A stretch of 64,000 nucleotides of DNA from an uncultured Planctomycetaceae bacterium. Its GTDB lineage: Bacteria; Planctomycetota; Planctomycetia; Planctomycetales; Planctomycetaceae. The stretch covers positions 1 to 64,000 of the forward strand of contig CAWFGE010000017.1 of assembly GCA_963815195.1 (NCBI GenBank). The letters are read 5' to 3'. The notes under the pieces are model-generated. The model saw only the letters and a program-made list of their open reading frames with translations. It was not told where the DNA came from and made no database searches. Both the position numbers and the translations under genes were made by a program. This document shows positions 50,650-64,000 of the stretch, in pieces; position 1 is the stretch's first letter; every line of letters starts with the position of its first letter.

Positions 50650-51697
50650 TTACCCCTTTTTTTGTTGTTCGCTTTGATCCGGCTCTTTTTTCTTTGGCTG
50701 TTGTTTCTTGTCTTCCTTCGGGATCGGCTCTGGGTCGCCTTCCGCGCGGAAGCGGCCGGTCTTCAGGAACTCGCGAGTGTAGGTGATCGTGTCGGCGTTG
50801 TTCATGAGGAAGGAATGCAGGCACTCGACGGTCGCGAAGTCACAGGCTCCGGGCAGGCGGGTGCTTTCCACGCTGACGGTGCCGTCGTCGTCGCCGGGGA
50901 CGAGCGGGTTGTAGCCGGTGTCCTTGCCGCGGGCGCCGGCAATCACGCCGAAGTCAAACTCCGGCGTGGGCAGCGAATCGATGTAGCCCCCGTTGATGCC
51001 CAACTGCCCCCCGGCCGGGCCGAAGATCATCTTGAACAGGAGGATGTTCTTAAAGATGTCGGCCATGTTCGCCCCGCGGTTGGGGACGCCGAGCATGACC
51101 ATCCGCTCGATGCGGTCGTCGTTGTGCTTCTCTAAATAACAGCGCACCAACAGCCCGCCCATGCTGTGGACGACGAAGGAAATCTTCTCGACGCCTTCGA
51201 GCGATTCGATCAGCTGGTTCAAGTATTCTGCCGACTGCGAAATCTCCACCTGCGTGCTGGGGTAATCGAAGCCGATGACGGTGTAGCCGTCTTTTTTAAG
51301 GGCCTCGGCCAGTTTGCTGAAGGACTTGGACGAGCGCACGATGCCGTGAATCAAAATCACCGCGTGCCCGGACATCCTCGGCAGCTTTTTCTCCTTCTTG
51401 ATTTCCTCCAGCTTCTTCTGGCAGCCTTCGAGCGTGCCCGAAGCGTGGCGGTGGTTTTGGGGATCGAGCAGGCGGTATTGCTTGAAGAACACGTTGTGCT
51501 GAAATTCGCCAGCCGTGAAAGTAGGCCACGTCCCCCCAAAACTGCATCCCGCCCAAAGTTTTCATCGCGAAATCCTGCTTGAGTTCCAACTTGGGAAGCC
51601 AGTCAAAATCCTCAGCCGCCGCGGGCGAAATCGCCACTCCCCCAAAAAGCACGAAGAGCCAGAGTTTCCAGGATGCCGCTTTGAAAAACTTCCACAT
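50650..51697 (-). CDS. Secreted alpha/beta hydrolase (lipase-like), frameshift near 51500
   Basis: TLGGMQFW in the upstream frame; LIHG, VHSMGG, LGVPN.G, DDGTV and CLH downstream. Confidence 0.85.
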
Positions 51698-51835
51698 CAC
51701 GCTACCTCCGTATGCGTGTTTGGGAGACATTAAGAAAAAACCGCACCCATCTTACCTCAATCGAGGCGGGAAGGATGCGGGAATATCACGCGGTTTTTCC
51801 ATTTTCGGCGATCGGAATCGGATCGCCCCGTCTCC

Positions 51836-54302
51836 CTATCTCCCCGTCTCCCTATCTCCGCGCGGAGCGGGCTTCTCCGCTTCCGCCGGGACAGGCCGGG
51901 CGACGGGCTTCAACGTCTTCACGGTCACCAGGCCCTCGGCGGGCGGGGTTTGGTCCAACAATCGGGCCGCTTCTTGGAGCACGAAATCCGGATTCATGAA
52001 CGGCTCGTAGCTGATGTCGTGCCAACGAACCCGGCCCTCGGCGTCGATCAAATACGTCCCGTGCAGCGGCTGGTTCTCGAAATCATCGAACGCCCGGTAC
52101 GCCTTGAACACCTTGTATTCCGGGTCGGCCACCAGCGGGAACGCGTACGTGTGCTCTTTGTTGTAATTCTTGAGGGCGATCTCCAAAGCCTCTCGGCTTT
52201 CGGTGCTGATGGCGATCAACGACAGGCCCTGTTTCTCAAATTCCTCGGCCTTGGGGGCGAAGGCTTTGAGCTGCTCGACGCAGTGCAGACAGCCGAAGCC
52301 CAGATAGAAAATCACCACCACCGGCTTGCCGCGATAATCGGCGAGGGAGTGCATCTTCCCGTCCTTGTCCTGCAGCGTCCAGGGTTCGGCTTCCGAGGGA
52401 TGCCAGCGGAACGGCCCCAACGTGTCGAGGTCGGGGCGATTGCCGACATCGCCGACTTTCGCGAGCGGCTGCCGCCAGTCCGCGGGCAGGCCCAGTTCTT
52501 TCGCCAAGGGCGCGAGCCGGGCAAAGATCGGTGTGTCGAGATCGATCGGCCCCGAGAATTTTCGCAGCTCGTCAAATGTGGCTTTGGCCGCGTCCGTCTG
52601 GCCGGCTTTCCATTGGATATAAGCCGCCTGCGCCCGCGGGATGGTTTCGTTTTTGTGCCGGGGCAAGTTCGTGCTCGCCAAACGCGCAGGCTTCTTCTTC
52701 ATCGCCGGCCCAGAGTTTCACGAGCGCCAGAAACAGCGGGTCCTGATCGCCCGCCTTCCGCAAGAGATCGTAGGCTTCCTGATGATTCCCCGCCGCGAGG
52801 GCTTCCTGTCCCTGGAACTCTTCGAGGGCTTTGTCGAGCGAGCGAAGCGAAGTCGCAAACGGCCGGGCCGCGGTGTCATGGGCTCTTTTGATGTCCTTGA
52901 CCGATTGCCGAACGATGTTGCGGTTGTAATCTTCGTCGGATTGCTCCGGTTCTTGTTTGATGCGTTTCTTGGCGTCGGCGAGGACTTTTTCTTCCGCCTT
53001 GATCTGGGCGGCCTTTTGCTGCTTTTCCACCTCGGCCTTGCGGCCGGCGACTTGCGTCACGACTTGCCGGGCGGCTTCGAGGTCGCCGCTGCGGAAGTAC
53101 GCCCGGCCGAGATACCGCAGGCGTTTGATCTGCTCGGCTTCCACGCCGGTCGGTTCCAGGTACGGCGAATTGCAGAGGCGGATCATCTCCGGCCACATTT
53201 CGTTTTGATTGAGAGCCGCAAAGAGCCGCAGCCGGCCGTAAGAGGCGCTGCTGCCGCGCCGGCTCACGGTGTTGTACCGCGGGTGCCGGGGCAGTTCGGT
53301 CATGTTCTTGGCGAGATCGACCGCATCGCGGACCCGGCCGGTGTAAAGCAGGTTGCGGATCAGCCATTCGTTGTTGTGGGCGAAGTTGTGGATCTGATCG
53401 GGCAGCACGCGGTCGCGGATCATCTGGGCATGGTCCACGCGGGCGGAGGCTTCCTGCTGCCAGACGGCGTCGTTATAGCGTTTGAGCCGGGAATAAATAT
53501 GCCCCGGCATATGCCACATGTGGGCGATGGAGGGAGCCGACTGCCCGCACAGCGACGCCGACTTGAGCGCCAACTCCGGCTTCTTCAAATCCCAGAGATG
53601 GATCACGTAATGATGCACCGGGTGCATCGGGTTTTTGGCGAGGATTTCGTGAAGGAGCGCATCGGTGCCCAGGTAGCTTTGAATCGGCTGCACCGAGCGG
53701 TTGAGCCAAATCTGCAAGCACAAAAACGCCTTGGCTTCCAAATCGTCCGGAGAGTCGAGGGCGATTTTTTCAAGCGCGAGGAGATAGGCTTCCTTCCGCT
53801 GCTTGTCTTTGTTGGCGGGCGTGGTGAGGTAGGCACTCAAGGCGTCGATGTATTGCTGCTCGCGATCGCTGGCTTTCGATTTCCGCTGGACGGCTTCTTT
53901 GATGAAGTCTTGGGCCCGCTTGGAATTGTTCGTGTTGGCCATCGCCATGCCCCAATAGGCAATGGCGCAGTCGGGATCGATCGCCGCCGCCTGCCGGAAC
54001 GAGCGCTCGGCTTCAAAGTACCAAAACCCGTGCAGTTGCCCCACGCCTTGGTTGATGAACTTCTGGGCGAGTTCGCTTTTGGTGGTCGCGGGGAAGGTCA
54101 CATTCCCGGTGCCTTCCATCAGGTAGGCTTTTTGGCGGGGGCCTTCGTTGAAGGCTTCGCCGTGGAAGGAATGCCCCGCCTCGGGCCCGGCGTCTTTCTC
54201 GGCGGATTCCTGCCCGCACGTTAAACCCGATCCGACCGTCAAAAGTCCGAAAACACAACACAGGTTGACGATGATGGCGTTCGTTCGGTTGGGGCGAATC
54301 AT
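51836..54302 (-). CDS. Secreted TPR-like helical protein fused to an AhpC/TSA redoxin domain, frameshift near 52705
   Basis: GHSFHGEAFNEGPRQ, HHYVIH, HMPGHIY; C-terminal FYLGFGCLHCVEQL...LHGTYLID. Confidence 0.82.
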
Positions 54303-54664
54303 ACGAGGGCGTCCTTGTGAGGCGGGAAGAACGGAGGGAAACACAGGCCGGGACCTAACGGGCAATTCCACACTCTATTCTGACGCCTGGACGCCGGAAT
54401 TCCAACGGACCGCCGCCCAAACGCGGCAAATCCGCCAAAGAACCGCCGAAATCGAAGGTGTGGGCAAAGTGCGCGGGAAGCGTGTTGCTTCGTGGGGGCG
54501 GCTCCAATGCGCCTCGGCTAACTCAACGACTTATCTCCTTTCGGGCGTTTCTCATTTGATGCACAAATCGTAAAAATAACCAAGCGACGAACTGACTGTA
54601 GATGAACAAAAAAAACCTGGCTCGACAAGAAAATCAGCCCAACCAAGACGCAAAGGTCTCTCTG

Positions 54665-56430: not shown

Positions 56431-58138
56431 TTACTTCGCCTGGAACAAGGCTTCTGAAAGGTCGTCTCGTTCTTTATAGGGGCGATATTTGTAGTACCAT
56501 TCGCCCCACTTCTCTTTCGAGCTGCTTCCGCCACTGGGCGACTGCGGCGTCTTTGGCTTTCTGGTCCGCCGAGGCGGGAACCTTCTCGAACGGGGTTTCG
56601 GGAAGATGAAAACCCAACGGTTTGCGGCTGAGCGTGCACAGGGCGTTGCGGGCTTCGACCATCACGTCCACGTTGTTGTCGTCCAAGGCCTCGATGAGCA
56701 ACTTGGCCATTCCCAGATCCTCCGTGCGGCCGAGCGCCCAAATGGCGGTCCGCCGGACTTCCACATTCGGATGCTTCGCGAGCTTGACCAACCGGTCCTT
56801 CTGTTTGATCAACTCCTCGCGGTCCCCCAGTTGCACCTGCTCGACGATGGCCTCCTGCGCGGCGGCGACATCCACCGTTTCCACTTTTTCCAACTCTTGG
56901 AGCAACTCGTCGATCGGGCCCAAATCTTTCTTGCTCTCGACTTTGCCGTCCTTGAGGATCGCCTGGCTGAGGTCGTCGGGCAGTCCGCGTCCGCCAGCGA
57001 GTAGCCCGTTGCCCAACGGATCAAACGGAACGTCGCGGTGCAGGATCTTGGCGGTGGCTTTGGTCAGAAACAGAATCCCGAACGCGGTGGAGGCGATTTC
57101 CCCGGTGGTGGAATTCCACGATCCGTTCTTGGCCTGGCTCGTGACGAGGTACGTCGCCCCTTCGCGGTACCAGTCGTGGTTGGCGATCGTTTGGACGTTC
57201 ATCAAGGCCGCCATCCGCTCGAACGTGTAAAGGTAATACATGTTCCAGCGGCCGGCGGTGATGGTGTACCGGCGGGCGATCCAACCCGCGGCGCGGTTCG
57301 CCGCCGCCGTTAAATTCCCGCTTGTCACGGTGGGGTGATAGTCGTTCGGGTCTTTGACCTTGGTGCCGTCGGGTTTTTCCACGGTGTCCAGATCGACGGA
57401 TTCCAGCACGCCGAATTTCGTGGTGGCGGGTTTTTTGGGTTTCTCGGCAGTTGGGTCCTCGGCGTTGGGATAGAGATGCATTCTCGCCATCAACAGCGAC
57501 CCCACGCCCGCGGCTGTCATCGTGTGGGAGACCGCGGTGTCATCGCCTTGACTTCCAAAGGGGTGATAGGAGTAGCCCCCGTCGCCCGACTGCGTCTTGA
57601 TAAACCAGGCCGCGCCGCGGTCCCAGACCTCGGGCGGGACCTTGATGCCCGACCGCTCGGCCGCCCAGAAGCCGAGCATCGCGTATTGGCATTGGCTCGT
57701 GTCCCCGCCGCGAAACCCGTCCACATAGTCCCAAGACCCGCTGGAGTGCTGGTGCTTGATCAGATACGCCACGATCGCTTCCATTTCCTTGCGGTATTTT
57801 TGCGGGTTGGCGGCTTCGAGGAGCATCATCTCCACGCCCGCGCCGTAAATCCCGTCGGAGCCGGGCTTGTAATTTCCGCCGCCCGCCCGCTTGACAACGT
57901 TGTTCAACACGCCTTGCACCGCGGGGCTGTTCGGCGGATCGCCCGCCTTCAAGAGGGCATACGCCGCCAAACCGCCGTAGCTCGATTCGCTTTCTTGCGC
58001 GACTCGCTGCCGGAGATAGGCCGCGGCGTCCGCCACGGATTTTTTGATCTGGGCACCCGTGACCTGGGCCGACGCCGCTTGGGGAAGGACGCAAACGATG
58101 GCCAATGTGCTCAGAATGAGAAAACGGAAGGTAACCAT
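56431..58138 (-). CDS. Secreted prenyltransferase/squalene-oxidase-repeat + HEAT-repeat protein (frameshift near 56515)
   Basis: QHSSGSWDY, DTSQCQYA, QSGDGGYSY, YYLY.FER, QAKNGSW; HEAT VRRTAIWALG; last residues in another frame to TAA at 56431. Confidence 0.8.
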
Positions 58139-58339
58139 GGTGATCGATCGCTTTGAGAGGAGAAAACACTGTCAAAAAGCTGGATCAGCCGGAACGCGCT
58201 CGCGTCCGATTCGCCCCGCAATAAACCGGGGCTAGCCGCCCTGCGGCTAATTTTTCCAACCTCGTTTTTGTTTTGGCGGAGTATTAGGACGATTTCCAAC
58301 TTCAGTTTATCTCAATCCCAGCCGCCTCGTCAAAGTCGC

Positions 58340-58864
58340 CTACCCGAAGAACGCGTCGGTCAGCCAGTTGATCAACAGCAAGGCGATCAAACAATTCCCG
58401 AACCAGACAGGCCAGCGGGCTTCGGAAATGCCGGTTTTGAGCTCGCGGAGCCGGTAGATGCGATAGGGGATTTGCAGCACGATCGCCAAAGCGAGGATCC
58501 AGCCGATGCGGTGGTAACTGAGCGAAGCTTCCCAATCGCCGCGGGCCAGCGAGAGGATGCTGCGGGTCAATCCGCAGCCGGGGCATTCGACGTTGAACAT
58601 AGCCCGGCTGCCGCACAATTCGGGCAGCGGATAATCTTCCAGCCCCCGAAACGCGACTCGCGTCCCGTCTTGGACCTGCATCAAAAACGCCAGCGCGACC
58701 ACGCTCGCGGAAATCCAGAGCATCGACCCGTGCCGTTTTCGCTGCCAGCGGCGAGTCCGCGCAACGTCGTCCGCATCGTCCAGGATTTCCAGGACTTCCA
58801 GCTCCGCCTCCGCGAGGTGTTCTTCCGCTGGAATGGACGTGGCGATCGAATCGGACATGGTCAT
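58340..58864 (-). CDS. DUF2752-like membrane protein
   Basis: LC..R....ECPGCGLTRS..S...GD...S..YH motif with 3 TM helices; ATGA overlap with the E2 gene. Confidence 0.85.
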   Translation of the reverse strand: MTMSDSIATSIPAEEHLAEAELEVLEILDDADDVARTRRWQRKRHGSMLWISASVVALAFLMQVQDGTRVAFRGLEDYPLPELCGSRAMFNVECPGCGLTRSILSLARGDWEASLSYHRIGWILALAIVLQIPYRIYRLRELKTGISEARWPVWFGNCLIALLLINWLTDAFFG

Positions 58865-59583
58865 CGGATTTCAAATACCCTCATGCACTTCTTGCAGCGA
58901 ACCCGGCGGCCGCGGACCTCGACTTTGACCGCGTAAACGGCACCGCAACCGGGGCAGGCCGTCTGAATGGTCTCGGGAGCCGGCTGCAACACGATGGGGG
59001 CTTCGTCCTCGAAGGTCGAACTCGCGGCGGGAGCCGGGGATCTTCGGGCCGTCGCCCGCGCGCTCGATGCGGCGGCGGGCGGGCGGCTTACCGCGGCCGA
59101 TTCGCCGGCGCCGGCTTTCTCCTCGTCCACCAGAAGGCTCACGCGGTCGAGCGGCAGTTGATCGCGGTTCTCATCGACCCAGCGGGCGGCTTCCCCGTTG
59201 AGCGGGCTTTTCACGTTGTAGCTTTGATAGGCGAGCATCTCGCCGATGCGGGTCACGATCGACTGCAGCGATTCCCCCGCGCTCCAGTGGTCCCCCACGC
59301 AAATCGCGTGCGGGGCGATGTTCGGATGGAACACCGGCGTCAGCATCCGGCACTGCGGCGGCGTGCGCGGATAATTCCGCGGCAACAGAATCTCCACCGT
59401 GTGATCTTTGATCGGCTCCAATTCCCCGTTGACCGACCGCAAGCTGCGAATGCGATATTGCAACTGATACCGCTCGGGCGGATCGCCTTCCGCCTGCAGC
59501 AACGTGATCCGCGGATGCAGCCGGGCGTATTCCTTCAACTTCTGATAATCGGCATTCAGCCGACGCAATCGCACATTGCTCAT
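58861..59583 (-). CDS. Ubiquitin-conjugating enzyme (E2/UBC)-fold protein with C-terminal Zn ribbon
   Basis: RLRRL..DY, LPRNYPRTPP, TPVFHPNI....IC (Cys codon 59299-59301), W, SPLNGEAA; CPGC...CKKC. Confidence 0.9.
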   Translation of the reverse strand: MSNVRLRRLNADYQKLKEYARLHPRITLLQAEGDPPERYQLQYRIRSLRSVNGELEPIKDHTVEILLPRNYPRTPPQCRMLTPVFHPNIAPHAICVGDHWSAGESLQSIVTRIGEMLAYQSYNVKSPLNGEAARWVDENRDQLPLDRVSLLVDEEKAGAGESAAVSRPPAAASSARATARRSPAPAASSTFEDEAPIVLQPAPETIQTACPGCGAVYAVKVEVRGRRVRCKKCMRVFEIR

Positions 59584-60845
59584 TTCTTGGGCGTCTCGAT
59601 TTGTTTCTGAGGCAGGGAAAGATTCCGCGGAAGCAATTCCAAGAGCGTGGGCAGGGAAATGGAAAAGCCCAGGCCCTCCGCCACGCGCTTGTCTCCGGTC
59701 AAGGTGTTGATGCCGATCAGTCGGCCTTGTTTATCGTAAAGTCCGCCGCCGCTGTTGCCGGGATTGAGCGCGGCCGTGCTTTGGAGAATCTTATACACGA
59801 ACCGCCCGCGCTGCCGGCGCCGGATTTGCGAAAGCTGCCCGGCCGAATGCGTCCAGCCCAACCCGTGGGGGTTTCCGATGGCGAACACGTCGTCGCCGAT
59901 GTGCGGATGCTGCTCGGCGTCCCAGTGGGCGACGGCGATGTCCTCGGGATCGAGGTGCGTGGAAAGAATCGCCAAATCGACCCCGTGCGGAGCGACCCAT
60001 TCAATTCTCGCGGGCACCGCCATTTGGGTGACGGTTTGAATCGAAATGTCGGACAGCTCCGACAAATTCGCGGCGGCGGTTTTGGTGTCCTCGGAATAAT
60101 CGTGATCGACGACGTGGCGGTTGGTGACGATCCACGCCACGCCGTCCTTGAGCTTCAAAATCACGCCCGAGCCCATGCCCTGCCTGGCGAATCCCGCGTC
60201 GGAGATCACGATCACGTTTGCCCGCATCGACCGGCCGAGATGCTCGGGCAACTCCTCGATCGAGGCCAGGTCCGGGGCGGCAAATTCCTGGAGCGAAACA
60301 AACCCGTGGTTTTGGCCCATGAAGTGATACATTCCAAAGGCCCAGCCGGCCACGTCCGCCATGCCAATCAGAATGGCGAGCACCCCCATCCACAGCCCGC
60401 GGCGGTTGCTGGTCTGGACGACCAGGGCAATGCAGCCGACGACGATGGCGACCATCCCCGTCACCAGCCCGAACAGCGGAATCCCCAAGAGCGCGATCAC
60501 AAACGCCCAGATCGCCGTGCGGTTCCAGCGTTTGTCCGGGGTCCGCAGGTCGCCCGCATCGAATTCGCTGAACGACCGCGGCGGCGGCAGCGGCTCGGCG
60601 GCGGCGAGTTCGTTGCGGGAAATCGTCAATGTCGAACCGGCGGGGGCCTGCGAACTCTTGCCCGTGGAGCATTCGTAAGAACCGCAGCCGCCTTGCAGAT
60701 TCCAGCAGGACTCGTGGTGGATCGTCCCGCATTTCCGGCAGATGGAGGTGGACTCGCCCAACTCCAACTCGCGCCCGCAGGCTCGGCAGTCCGCACCTGC
60801 TTCCCGGTCACCGGCCGCGACAATTATGGGATTCAAATTTTGCAC
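59580..60845 (-). CDS. Prokaryotic RING + DUF4190-like TM pair + trypsin-like serine protease fusion
   Basis: CRAC-x12-CRKC-x3-HH-x2-CW-x5-C-x4-C; TM helices; triad TNRHVV / DLA / NPGNSGG; start moved downstream of a repeat. Confidence 0.85.
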   Translation of the reverse strand: MQNLNPIIVAAGDREAGADCRACGRELELGESTSICRKCGTIHHESCWNLQGGCGSYECSTGKSSQAPAGSTLTISRNELAAAEPLPPPRSFSEFDAGDLRTPDKRWNRTAIWAFVIALLGIPLFGLVTGMVAIVVGCIALVVQTSNRRGLWMGVLAILIGMADVAGWAFGMYHFMGQNHGFVSLQEFAAPDLASIEELPEHLGRSMRANVIVISDAGFARQGMGSGVILKLKDGVAWIVTNRHVVDHDYSEDTKTAAANLSELSDISIQTVTQMAVPARIEWVAPHGVDLAILSTHLDPEDIAVAHWDAEQHPHIGDDVFAIGNPHGLGWTHSAGQLSQIRRRQRGRFVYKILQSTAALNPGNSGGGLYDKQGRLIGINTLTGDKRVAEGLGFSISLPTLLELLPRNLSLPQKQIETPKK

Positions 60846-60911
60846 GACATTCCTCAAGGGAAAAGTTTCCGTTGGGGCCTCGATCCTTGGAACGTGTTTT
60901 AAATTGCCATT

Positions 60912-60993
60912 GTGAGCGGCTAGCCGCTCGCCGCCGGTCTTGATTTTGTACGTATCCTTCATCGAAACCGGAGGCTAGCGGCTTGCCGCTCAC
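60912..60993. repeat. Family D palindromic repeat between the two RING genes
   Basis: GTGAGCGGCTAGCCGCT / GCTAGCGGCTTGCCGCTCAC; includes the stop codon of 60990-61694. Confidence 0.8.
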
Positions 60994-61694
60994 TTCCCAA
61001 ATACGATGAAAAACACCATGAGTGCGCTGTAGATTCCCGACAGCCCGATCGACACCCATGCCATGATAGCGTAAAGCGGGCTGCATTTGGCTAGTATTTT
61101 TCGGCGGGGCAGGACGTAAATCAAGCCGATCAGGAGAATCAACGGAGCCGCGCAACCGATGAGAGACGCCACAAATAGCGCCGTCACCGACTGTTGCGTC
61201 TTTTCGACGTCCGTTTTGGACTTGGCCTGTTTTCGGAGATCCTTCGTGGTCATCGGATCGACCGACTCGAATTCCTCGTCGCAATACCGGCATTTGAGGG
61301 CGATCGCTTTGATCTCTTCCCCGCACGCCGGGCAGCGTTTGGTGTCGCCCCAGGCCGCGAGCGGCGTTTGGTGGGAGTCTTCGGACTTCTCGACCGCCGG
61401 GGCCTGCTCGCAGCCGTACGTCCCGCAGCCGCCGATCTCTGACCAGCATTCCCGGTGGTGCACCTGATCGCAGCTCGGGCAGGTCACGCAGGCTTCGTCG
61501 GGCGAGATTTCGCTTTGGCAAATGGGGCACGCGGTTTGATGGCCGGCGGAGACCGGCGTGAGCGAGAGCACGCGGGCATCCACCGTCAGCGCCAAACCCG
61601 TCTTGCACCGCGGGCAGCGGAACGTGCGGTTGGTGCGGTCGGCCGGAACCCGAACTTTGGCTCCGCAGTCACAGCTAATGATTTGGGTCGACAT
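60990..61694 (-). CDS. Zn-ribbon + prokaryotic RING + Zn-ribbon protein with two C-terminal TM helices
   Basis: CDC..CPRC; CPIC-x12-CPSC-x3-HH-x2-CW-x5-C-x4-C; CPACGEEI....KCRYC; TM helices. Confidence 0.85.
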   Translation of the reverse strand: MSTQIISCDCGAKVRVPADRTNRTFRCPRCKTGLALTVDARVLSLTPVSAGHQTACPICQSEISPDEACVTCPSCDQVHHRECWSEIGGCGTYGCEQAPAVEKSEDSHQTPLAAWGDTKRCPACGEEIKAIALKCRYCDEEFESVDPMTTKDLRKQAKSKTDVEKTQQSVTALFVASLIGCAAPLILLIGLIYVLPRRKILAKCSPLYAIMAWVSIGLSGIYSALMVFFIVFGK

Positions 61695-61854
61695 GGAGGT
61701 GTTTCAAGGACTTCGCTTCGTTGGTCAATGGCGGTTTTGTCGAGCGGGTGAAGCACAACAGACCCCAATCGCAAAAGGGGGCGGCGCTTCTCCGCCGACG
61801 GAATGTCAAATACAAATCCTACTCTTTTCGATCGCAGGTTTCTTCCCACCCGCA

Positions 61855-62394
61855 TTAGTGCCGGCCCGCCGACTCGATAATGACGCGGATGACTCCCCCC
61901 AGGATGCTGAATAGGAGCGACACGCCGAACATTTTGGCCCCCTTGGGTTTGCCTTGGACCATCCACACGATCCCCAAGATGCAGCCGATCCCGGAGCAGA
62001 GAATCGCCACGACCCAATCGCCGCCGGTCATATCCGCGTCTTCGTCGGCATGGCGGGACCCCGACCGCGACTTCTTGGACCGGCGTTTTAACCCCGGATC
62101 GAAAATCTCCCCGCAATACCGGCACTTGGCGGCTTTGCGCATGATCATTTCGCCGCACGCCGGGCAGGGCTTGCGGTCGCCCTCCTCCGCCGCCGATCCC
62201 GCATTGGGGTCCAGCCCGCCAAAATCGAAATCCCCCCCGCCGCCGACTTCCTCGGCCTCGAAGACATCGTCGGCCGCGGCGGCGGGGATCTGCACCCGCT
62301 CTCCGCAATGGGGGCACTTGGCCATCTTTCCCGCCATCGAGTCTTTCGTTCGCAAGACCGCGCCGCAGGATTCGCAGTTGACAGTAATCGACAC
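61855..62394 (-). CDS. Double Zn-ribbon membrane protein (paralog 1)
   Basis: CESC..CPHC, CPACGEMI....KCRYC, two TM helices; GGAG-like RBS region upstream. Confidence 0.8.
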   Translation of the reverse strand: MSITVNCESCGAVLRTKDSMAGKMAKCPHCGERVQIPAAAADDVFEAEEVGGGGDFDFGGLDPNAGSAAEEGDRKPCPACGEMIMRKAAKCRYCGEIFDPGLKRRSKKSRSGSRHADEDADMTGGDWVVAILCSGIGCILGIVWMVQGKPKGAKMFGVSLLFSILGGVIRVIIESAGRH

Positions 62395-62456
62395 AGGAGG
62401 CCTTTCTCTGACAAGCGGAAATTCAGTTTCTCATGGTCATAAAAACTTCGAGCGGC

Positions 62457-63014
62457 TTAACCTGCTCCTTCGAGGATGGCTCCAATGACGAACCCGATGG
62501 CCCGCCAAATGATTCCCGAAAGAATCGAGAACCCAATCATTTTCGAGCCTTTGGGTTTGCCTTGAATCACATAGACCAGCCCGACGATGCACGCGATCCC
62601 CCCGCAAAAAATCACCAGCAGCCATTCCAATGTGTCCAGATCCTCATCTTCATCTCCGTAACGGGAGCGCGAGCGTTTTCGCGAACTTTTCTTGCGGCGT
62701 TTGAGGGCGGGGTCGAAAATCTCCCCGCAGTACCGGCACTTGGCGGCTTTCCGCATGATCATTTCGCCGCACGCCCGGCAGGGCTTGCGCTCGTCCCGCG
62801 GGACGGTGGCGCCGGCATTGGGGTCGAATCCGCCGAAGTCGAAATCCTCGGCTCCGTCCATCTCTTCCGCTTCGTAAACCTCCTCTTTTTTCGGTTTGGG
62901 AACCGGAATCCGCACGCGCTCCCCGCAGTGAGGGCACTTCGCCGTTTTGCCCGCCATCGACGTCTTCGTTCGCAGAACCGCCTGGCAGGATTTGCACCTT
63001 ACCCGAATAGACAC
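62457..63014 (-). CDS. Double Zn-ribbon membrane protein (paralog 2)
   Basis: CKSC..CPHC, CRACGEMI....KCRYC, two TM helices; GAGAGGAAGG RBS. Confidence 0.8.
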   Translation of the reverse strand: MSIRVRCKSCQAVLRTKTSMAGKTAKCPHCGERVRIPVPKPKKEEVYEAEEMDGAEDFDFGGFDPNAGATVPRDERKPCRACGEMIMRKAAKCRYCGEIFDPALKRRKKSSRKRSRSRYGDEDEDLDTLEWLLVIFCGGIACIVGLVYVIQGKPKGSKMIGFSILSGIIWRAIGFVIGAILEGAG

Positions 63015-63094
63015 ACTCAACCTTCCTCTCGCACGTTGATCGGCGGGATAATCCACCTCTTCAAAAGGATTTCAGGATGATGAGTTTTAGGGGA

Positions 63095-63249
63095 AAATTC
63101 GAAATCCGAATCTCGAAATCCGAAACAAATTCCAATCACCGAAATTCCCATCTCCAAACCCTGAACCGGTTGTGTTTTATGACCCAACGTTGTTTGCAAC
63201 ATTTGGATTTTGAATTTGTTTCGGATTTCGGATTTCGCGCTTCGGATTT
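63095..63249. repeat. Heptamer-based (CGAAATC/GATTTCG) palindromic intergenic element, family F
   Basis: TCGAAATCCGAATCTCGAAATCCGAAACAAATTC / GAATTTGTTTCGGATTTCGGATTTCG. Confidence 0.75.
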
Positions 63250-63256
63250 CCCCCTT

Positions 63257-64000
63257 TTAGGACGTGGTTTCTTTGACGGAGAATTCCAAAACCGTTTTGC
63301 CCAGCACCACCTGGTCGCCGGGCTGGAGTATGTGCCGGGTGATGGGAATCCCGTTGACGTAGGTCCCGTCGGGGGTGTTGCAGTCTTCGATTTCGAAGCG
63401 GCCGCCGCGGTTGGTGACGATCGCGTGCCGGGGTTCGATGGCATCATCTTTGAACAGATACACGTCGGCCTTGGGCGAACTGCCCAGGACGGTGGTGTCT
63501 TTGAACAAGATGAACTGCTTGCCCGCCAGGGGGCCTTTCCGCATGAGCAGCCAGGCGGTCTTGGTCCAGCCTTCGACGAGGCCCACGAACAACCCGACGA
63601 AACAGCCGATCGTCGCAAACCCGACGCCCCGGCTGTAAGTCGCCTGCCCATCGGCGGTGACGAGGACCATGCTGATCGGGTCGAACAGAAACCCGCCCAA
63701 GAGTCCGCCCAACACCGCTCCGACGAGCCCGTTGATAATGACCTTCTTCTCGCGGAGGGCGATGCCCTGGCCGATTCCCGAGGGAATCGATGCCACGCTC
63801 CACGCGGCCGCCCGGCCCATCATCATGATCAACAGCGCGAGTCCCGTGGGCATGGCGTTCGGCTGCGGATTCTTCCAGAAACTCACCGCCAATGTGATCA
63901 TCAAACTGAAGATGATCCCGGTGGGGATGAGCGCGATCAGTCCGCCGAGGAAGCCCACGGCCAAACCGACCATGCCGGATTTGACTGCCCGGAGCGGATT
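63257..64000 (-). CDS. Multi-TM protein with C-terminal FHA-like domain (5' partial)
   Basis: Gly-rich TM helices, then AWL..KGPLAGKQF.L..LGS....D....D..I...HA...GTYVNG..L.PGD; frame is open to the window edge. Confidence 0.85.
   Translation of the reverse strand, partial: NPLRAVKSGMVGLAVGFLGGLIALIPTGIIFSLMITLAVSFWKNPQPNAMPTGLALLIMMMGRAAAWSVASIPSGIGQGIALREKKVIINGLVGAVLGGLLGGFLFDPISMVLVTADGQATYSRGVGFATIGCFVGLFVGLVEGWTKTAWLLMRKGPLAGKQFILFKDTTVLGSSPKADVYLFKDDAIEPRHAIVTNRGGRFEIEDCNTPDGTYVNGIPITRHILQPGDQVVLGKTVLEFSVKETTS

Follow-up and report, generated by a model that had tools for sequence, protein, structure and literature searches.

Several prokaryotic systems for conjugating ubiquitin-like proteins have been described. 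The Caldiarchaeum subterraneum operon encodes a separate ubiquitin-like protein (Ubl), E1, E2, RING protein and JAMM protein; its cascade functions in vitro, where the JAMM protein Rpn11 trims pro-ubiquitin, and the ubiquitin ends in Gly-Gly (PMC5654768). Bil (BilABCD), the type II cyclic oligonucleotide-based antiphage signalling system (CBASS; Cap2/Cap3) and Bub combine a bacterial Ubl, E1, E2 and JAB, and conjugation has been demonstrated there; the gene sets listed for them contain neither a RING E3 nor membrane partners, and Bub forms Tyr/Ser oxyesters and often lies in mobile or defence loci (PMC11601603, PMC11601596). PMC4197634 attributes related operons of Actinobacteria, Planctomycetes and Acidobacteria to Burroughs et al. 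2011, a tri-ligase set with a prokaryotic RING is described in PMC7159879, and C4HC3 bacterial RINGs are noted in PMC11354881. We analysed a window of 64,000 nucleotides, the first 64 kb of contig CAWFGE010000017.1 (C17), from the 8.87-Mb genome (G000; GCA_963815195.1) of an uncultured Planctomycetaceae bacterium whose relatives are planctomycetes. At its end begins an operon of ten minus-strand genes (C17 58340-67116), three of them beyond base 64000, in the order Ubl–E1–JAB–FHA–ZnR–ZnR–RING-a–RING-b/protease–E2–DUF2752, where ZnR denotes a zinc-ribbon membrane protein:

58340..58864, minus strand: DUF2752 membrane protein in which a CPGCG motif is conserved (Pfam PF10825, E=1e-15)
58861..59583, minus strand: E2, a UBC fold followed by a low-complexity linker and a C-terminal MJ0042-type zinc ribbon (UQ_con, E=9e-13)
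59580..60962, minus strand: RING-b, a DUF4190-like membrane segment and an HtrA/DegS-like trypsin protease (Prok-RING_1 and Trypsin_2, E=3e-22)
60990..61694, minus strand: RING-a, a zinc ribbon, a C4HC3 prokaryotic RING, a second zinc ribbon and a membrane anchor (Prok-RING_1, E=7.6e-10)
61855..62394, minus strand: ZnR-TM 1, two zinc ribbons, a basic linker, a hairpin and one membrane helix (Zn_ribbon_3)
62457..63014, minus strand: ZnR-TM 2, a tandem paralogue of ZnR-TM 1, 61% identical (Zn_ribbon_3)
63257..64000, minus strand: multi-pass membrane protein with a C-terminal FHA domain (E=3.5e-13 to 6e-13); the window end cuts the gene, whose start lies near C17 64321-64354
C17 64367-65586, minus strand, outside the window: membrane-anchored JAB (E=4e-13)
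C17 65583-66782, minus strand, outside the window: E1 of the ThiF family (ThiF, E=5.6e-38)
C17 66847-67116, minus strand, outside the window: YukD-like Ubl of 89 residues, ending Ala-Gly (YukD, E=3.4e-12)

An earlier note, made from the letters of the window, had described the seven genes inside it, and all seven are minus-strand open reading frames where it had placed them. Pfam matches agree with its DUF2752, FHA, protease and zinc-ribbon assignments, with Zn_ribbon_3 above the cut-off in one of the two small membrane proteins and below it in the other. The overlaps it had seen from RING/protease to E2 and from E2 to DUF2752 are each 4 bp, and hydropathy backs the membrane segments of the operon proteins. 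It had also reported no Ubl, E1 or JAB in the window and proposed reading further along the contig; all three genes lie directly past base 64000, on the same strand and in the same operon.

The operon is a member of the E1/E2/RING/JAB tri-ligase class, which was predicted from genome sequences in 2011. As presented in papers that cite that work (PMC4197634, PMC7159879 and PMC3417536), the class brings these five core components together in a single neighbourhood, in the same phylum and with the same RING family (Prok-RING_1, PF14446; Burroughs, Iyer and Aravind 2011), in line with the earlier note's statement that E2 and RING neighbourhoods had been predicted in planctomycetes. The separate Cys-type E1 and E2 and the two RINGs set it apart from Bil, type II CBASS and Bub, which are distinguished by the lack of a RING, an E2-E1 fusion, or Ser/Tyr chemistry with DUF6527; the earlier note had likewise proposed a layout different from that of CBASS and Bil. 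The catalytic Cys and mostly metabolic neighbours also contrast with Bub. The five separate core components are shared with Caldiarchaeum. Differences are a YukD-like Ubl with an Ala-Gly end, membrane anchors on the RINGs and JAB, and the fusion of a protease to one RING; in addition, no 20S proteasome was found, the sole proteasome-family match in G000 being read as HslV.

The residues expected of a conjugation cascade are strongly conserved. E2 scored 48.4 bits against UQ_con (cut-off 27), its best PDB match was UBE2B (E=3.6e-10), and its closest solved relatives are UBE2B/UBE2A, in agreement with the UBC fold first proposed for it. The HPN motif (H86/P87/N88) and catalytic Cys95 were kept in 53/53 aligned homologues. 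For E1, the Cys located after the Zn-binding CxxC was found in 31/31 sequences, and the best PDB sequence matches were UBA7/UBA3/UBA2 (E about 1e-22 to 1e-23), above ThiF (4e-16). In the E1 model of a relative, the structural alignment extends to the C-terminal domains of UBA3 and UBA1; by sequence, the C-terminal domain matched no PDB entry significantly. As modelled, E1 has a UBA3-like C-terminal domain, of the ubiquitin-fold type through which canonical E1s bind E2. The JAB motif was kept in 35/35 sequences.

The E1 and JAB genes of G000 are interrupted in the assembly, by two frameshifts and one, respectively. A 558-bp short-read contig of public run X1 lacked both E1 shifts and showed zero substitutions or further differences; the run may be the source sample, which makes it good for an error check without adding independent support. 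A contig from a second study corrected one of the two E1 shifts, and JAB open reading frames of 330-530 residues were observed in 34 of 40 relatives. We read all three frameshifts as assembly errors, in the case of JAB by inference. Other genes appear split as well (window 50650-51730, 52572-54371 and 56474-58138; C17 83063-85428), which fits an indel-prone assembly, and a short-read contig has a gap near C17 56400-56860.

In all 39 loci from which a Ubl was extracted, the Ubl carries its end motif at Gly89. Thereafter 5 loci stop, as in G000, where the protein is already in mature form, 31 add 1-41 unconserved residues, and 3 run into a ZnR–DUF4190 membrane protein. The fixed end motif and variable tails suggest that JAB trims a precursor, as with Caldiarchaeum pro-ubiquitin. 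The three fusions are in frame (L076:2860-3558, L077:2067-2750 and L100:1079-1738), a fourth is frameshifted (L097), and an unfused ZnR–DUF4190 gene stands directly behind Ubl in four loci (L034, L042, L047 and L061). The fusions are a hint as to the substrates.

Both RING proteins exceed the Prok-RING_1 cut-off of 29.1 bits (34.3 and 39.0), in line with the earlier assignment. All 8 RING-a ligands were present in 49/49 homologues and Trp84 in 48/49, while RING-b ligands were kept in 45-50 of 53. The AlphaFold model of RING-a has a predicted local distance difference test score (pLDDT) of 88.3. A complex model of E2 with a RING, as the earlier note had suggested, was obtained for RING-a and supports the pairing weakly: E2 (residues 1-152) with RING-a (46-150) scored 0.47, against 0.01 for the best control, with contact agreement of at least 70% between runs and a partner pLDDT of 66-68. 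Among reference pairs, 116 of the 157 solved ones passed the scoring mark, as did 2 of the 215 mismatched ones; those passing at 0.60 or below were only 18 solved pairs and both mismatches. Since solved E2-RING complexes exist, the model may be remembered.

To place the operon among its relatives, at least 587 E2 relatives from 601 candidate stretches were aligned and the best 80 kept, of which 74 are titled planctomycetes; the others include Myxococcota, Acidobacteriota and one 'Proteobacteria'. Locus counts are based on the 48 of these 80 that have 9 kb or more of upstream DNA and omit the remaining 32. Near E2, RING-a was present in 44/48 loci, bearing out the proposed E2–RING linkage, the protease in 43/48, JAB and FHA in 38/48, and Ubl, E1 and DUF2752 in 37/48. 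All seven core genes were found in 35 of the 48, and DUF2752 as well in 28, with gene order retained among same-strand matches. Where the Ubl/E1 half was not at the E2 locus, 5/5 such genomes checked carried both elsewhere; in G017 the system is divided over three places. Both halves are present in the cultured strain Aeoliella straminimaris ICT_H6.2. A second planctomycete subtype, ordered Ubl-E2-E1 or E1-Ubl-E2-JAB (L027-L032, L127 and L128), has an E2 from a different clade at ~35% identity, with a second, Cys-less E2 in L031; some genomes carry both subtypes.

Across 301 Planctomycetota genomes, among which kin are not independent, Ubl was found in 29, Prok-RING in 37 and both in 28, so that Prok-RING occurs in 28/29 genomes with Ubl and in 9/272 without it. 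No Ubl, RING or E1 of this type was found in G008, a genome in a single contig; its orphan E2 (L026, G008:C1:2983873-2984538) has Tyr in place of the catalytic Cys. Four genomes of one family (G077, G102, G121 and G138) and G262 have 18 to at least 21 Prok-RING_1 matches each, with one Ubl match. These matches lie scattered over many contigs, and in G262:C146 four RING genes stand in a row before E1. Such numbers with a single Ubl amount to a eukaryote-like expansion of putative E3s. This genomic case for an E3 role (co-occurrence, co-loss and RING expansion) is stronger than the complex model. We consider it likely that the RINGs are E3s, with RING-a the main candidate.

The protease triad H283/D329/S404 was kept in 52, 53 and 53 of 53 homologues; a Pfam scan gave no PDZ match for this protein, all NCBIfam HtrA models were far under their cut-offs, and the true start of the gene may be the GTG at 60845. 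In RING-b, lysine and arginine together average 3.1 ahead of the hydrophobic hairpin and 3.0 within the loop, and fall to 0.75 past the last helix. RING-a and the ZnR proteins likewise have positive charge before the hairpin and in the next loop, and little past the last helix. This charge pattern suggests that the RINGs and ribbons are cytoplasmic and that the protease domain is probably in the periplasm. The hairpin-plus-helix anchors did not match the CD225 profile, and their likeness to the CD225/dispanin topology is by charge counts only. In eukaryotic membrane RING ligases, such as the PA-TM-RING proteins RNF13 and RNF43 and those of endoplasmic-reticulum-associated degradation and the MARCH family, an extracytoplasmic domain is joined across the membrane to a cytoplasmic RING, and membrane proteins are tagged. 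The RING-a model has weak fold matches to RNF13/RMR1. The resemblance is an analogy of architecture only, and the outer domain here differs in being an intact trypsin-type protease.

HHalign pairs the second ribbon of ZnR-TM 1 with that of RING-a at 99.2%, and a CxxC-x10-CxxC ribbon pattern is common to the Ubl-linked ZnR–DUF4190 protein, the ZnR-TM second ribbon and the RING-a second ribbon. Between loci, the ZnR-TM genes differ in how many copies there are and in the type of membrane domain, which can be an RDD domain. These proteins are the likeliest candidates for substrates or adaptors. An unlinked protein of ~560-600 residues in G000:C8 (L123:3064-4857), with no Pfam match at E<=1e-8, has the same C-terminal membrane anchor as ZnR-TM and is a possible distant substrate or adaptor. 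Canonical phosphothreonine-binding FHA domains have conserved Arg, Ser and Asn residues in their binding loops. In this family they are replaced (Arg by Ser in 37/38, Ser by Glu/Asp in 38/38 and Asn by Asp in 30/38), so the FHA protein probably does not read kinase signals. DUF2752, whose family occurs in 184/301 Planctomycetota genomes and is therefore not system-specific, we label an accessory subunit.

The operon is thus confirmed. With Ubl and E1 present, E2 a classical UBC protein and the RING linkage conserved, the interpretation first placed on it is supported. We find it highly probable that the products form a conjugation cascade and reasonably probable that its targets are membrane proteins. 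From the genes, their order, residues and folds, we infer the following chemistry, substrates and role. JAB would trim the Ubl precursor after Gly89; E1 would adenylate Ubl, bind it to its Cys through a thioester and recruit E2 through its C-terminal domain. E2 would receive Ubl on Cys95, its zinc-ribbon tail keeping it near the membrane, and the two membrane-anchored RINGs would act as E3s that transfer Ubl onto lysines of inner-membrane proteins. The first substrate candidates would be the variable ZnR/DUF4190-type membrane proteins and the RING proteins themselves. The periplasmic HtrA-like protease of RING-b could couple envelope damage or cleavage to cytoplasmic tagging, the membrane-anchored JAB could reverse tagging, and scaffolding could fall to the FHA and DUF2752 proteins. 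The missing 20S proteasome argues against that particle as the reader of the tag, which might instead be used for regulation, sorting, or turnover by other proteases.

As a whole, this picture of a membrane-anchored E1–E2–RING-E3 cascade with its own JAB, at the cytoplasmic face of the inner membrane and linked to an HtrA-like protease, is one that we favour slightly. A physiological role in envelope quality control or signalling is tentative and falls a little short of an even chance. A bolder version, speculative and on the unlikely side, is a receptor-ligase system in which the periplasmic protease acts through the DUF4190 anchor on the RING E3 and envelope proteolysis controls reversible Ubl tagging of variable ZnR membrane proteins. 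The Ubl–ZnR–DUF4190 gene would then be a pre-tagged substrate, and in some planctomycetes the RINGs would have expanded to ~20 per Ubl, as in eukaryotes. If true, bacteria would have their own counterpart of membrane-protein ubiquitination, one that works without a proteasome.

Several observations weigh against the favoured cascade. Its activity is read from sequence and models, and its topology from charge counts rather than a dedicated predictor. The protease is absent from some loci, RING-b is less conserved than RING-a, and the system was not found in G001, a genome of the same genus that is 94% complete. Patchiness of this degree is commoner among conflict systems than among housekeeping ones. 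The three Ubl fusions form one clade (SH-like approximate likelihood ratio test 98, in a quick tree), which points to a single event, and some Ubl tails may come from long-read errors. YukD of B. subtilis, from the same Pfam family as this Ubl, is reported in PMC1779556 as unconjugated. Finally, a Foldseek search with the RING-a model returned no match at E<=0.001, and its weak fold matches score alike for RNF12 (root-mean-square deviation 1.9 over 41 positions), the Pygo PHD (2.5 over 38) and C1.

This ambiguity of fold leaves room for E3-free conjugation straight from E2, as in Bil, with the C4HC3 domains as PHD/C1-like docking or lipid-binding modules; the Bil and Bub operons, as listed in PMC11601603, likewise include no E3. 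The near-constant pairing of RING with Ubl, the many RINGs per Ubl in five genomes, the invariant RING-a ligands with their Trp84 and, weakly, the complex model all speak against it, and we hold it to be improbable. Sulfur transfer or a small-molecule pathway of the ThiS/MoaD type, instead of protein tagging, would sit poorly with an active-type E2 and RINGs, with an E1 whose C-terminal domain is UBA3-like and which gave no rhodanese match, and with an operon that contains no sulfur-pathway genes; we give it almost no credence.

A membrane-triggered defence against phages or competitors, in which membrane sensors lead to Ubl being placed on invader proteins or to the protease being activated as effector, would account for the patchy distribution (Ubl in 29/301 genomes) and the variable ZnR-TM genes. 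Bil and type II CBASS are described as anti-phage conjugation systems (PMC11601603), and a related tri-ligase set is placed within predicted conflict systems (PMC7159879). We examined 101 flanking open reading frames from 32 loci, a heuristic pick with no control set, against PADLOC at E<=1e-10; seven matched, of which six are generic Ser/Thr kinases and the seventh is an AAA domain of the ClpB type. Most annotated flanking genes are metabolic, and one group of loci shares a position beside G6PD. Within the operon, the E2, Ubl, FHA and DUF2752 proteins matched no PADLOC model, and E1 (through ThiF), JAB and the protease matched through shared domains only. The metabolic neighbours and generic matches weaken the case for defence, which we regard as unlikely. 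Of the roles first put forward (membrane-protein tagging, quality control, signalling or defence), tagging stays an interpretation and defence draws no support from the neighbouring genes. Ser/Thr kinases were among the nearest neighbours in 6/32 loci (L044, L094, L095, L103, L107 and L112); kinases of this sort abound in these phyla, and their presence may be due to chance. Patchiness would also suit a selfish, restriction-modification-like module whose tagging harms the host unless JAB reverses it, an idea put forward for E1/E2/JAB operons of prokaryotes at large (PMC3417536). Against it, the halves of the operon are both retained where they have come to lie apart on the chromosome, and the sampled flanks held no recurring mobile-element genes; we rate a selfish module as very improbable.

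Around the operon itself, interspersed intergenic repeats lie at window 63086-63255 and 58191-58260, with 125 and 73 BLAST segments in the genome, respectively. Downstream, on the same strand, window 56474-58138 encodes a protein with a prenyltransferase/squalene-cyclase-like repeat and HEAT, whose gene was not beside E2 in 11 relatives checked. Upstream, C17 71264-74041 and 78160-79581 hold what we take to be TadE/TadG-like genes and a VirD4/TraG-like coupling protein.

Our literature search, which lay outside most subscription journals, found no description of the RING–DUF4190–protease or Ubl–ZnR–DUF4190 fusion, of DUF2752 or of the degenerate FHA, nor did it turn up an experimental test of any bacterial RING cascade; the fusions, DUF2752 and the FHA may already be in the 2011 work. 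The operon is therefore best described as a well-conserved member of a predicted and apparently bench-untried class. The tested bacterial Ubl pathways that we found (type II CBASS, Bil and Bub) have no E3 as their sources list them, and the sole reconstituted prokaryotic E1/E2/RING cascade found in the literature is archaeal. The operon offers a bacterial cascade that is strongly conserved, all-cysteine and equipped with RINGs, and it comes with named substrate candidates. Two questions thereby become testable: whether a bacterial RING can function as an E3 ligase, and how a Ubl tag affects membrane proteins in a cell that lacks a proteasome.

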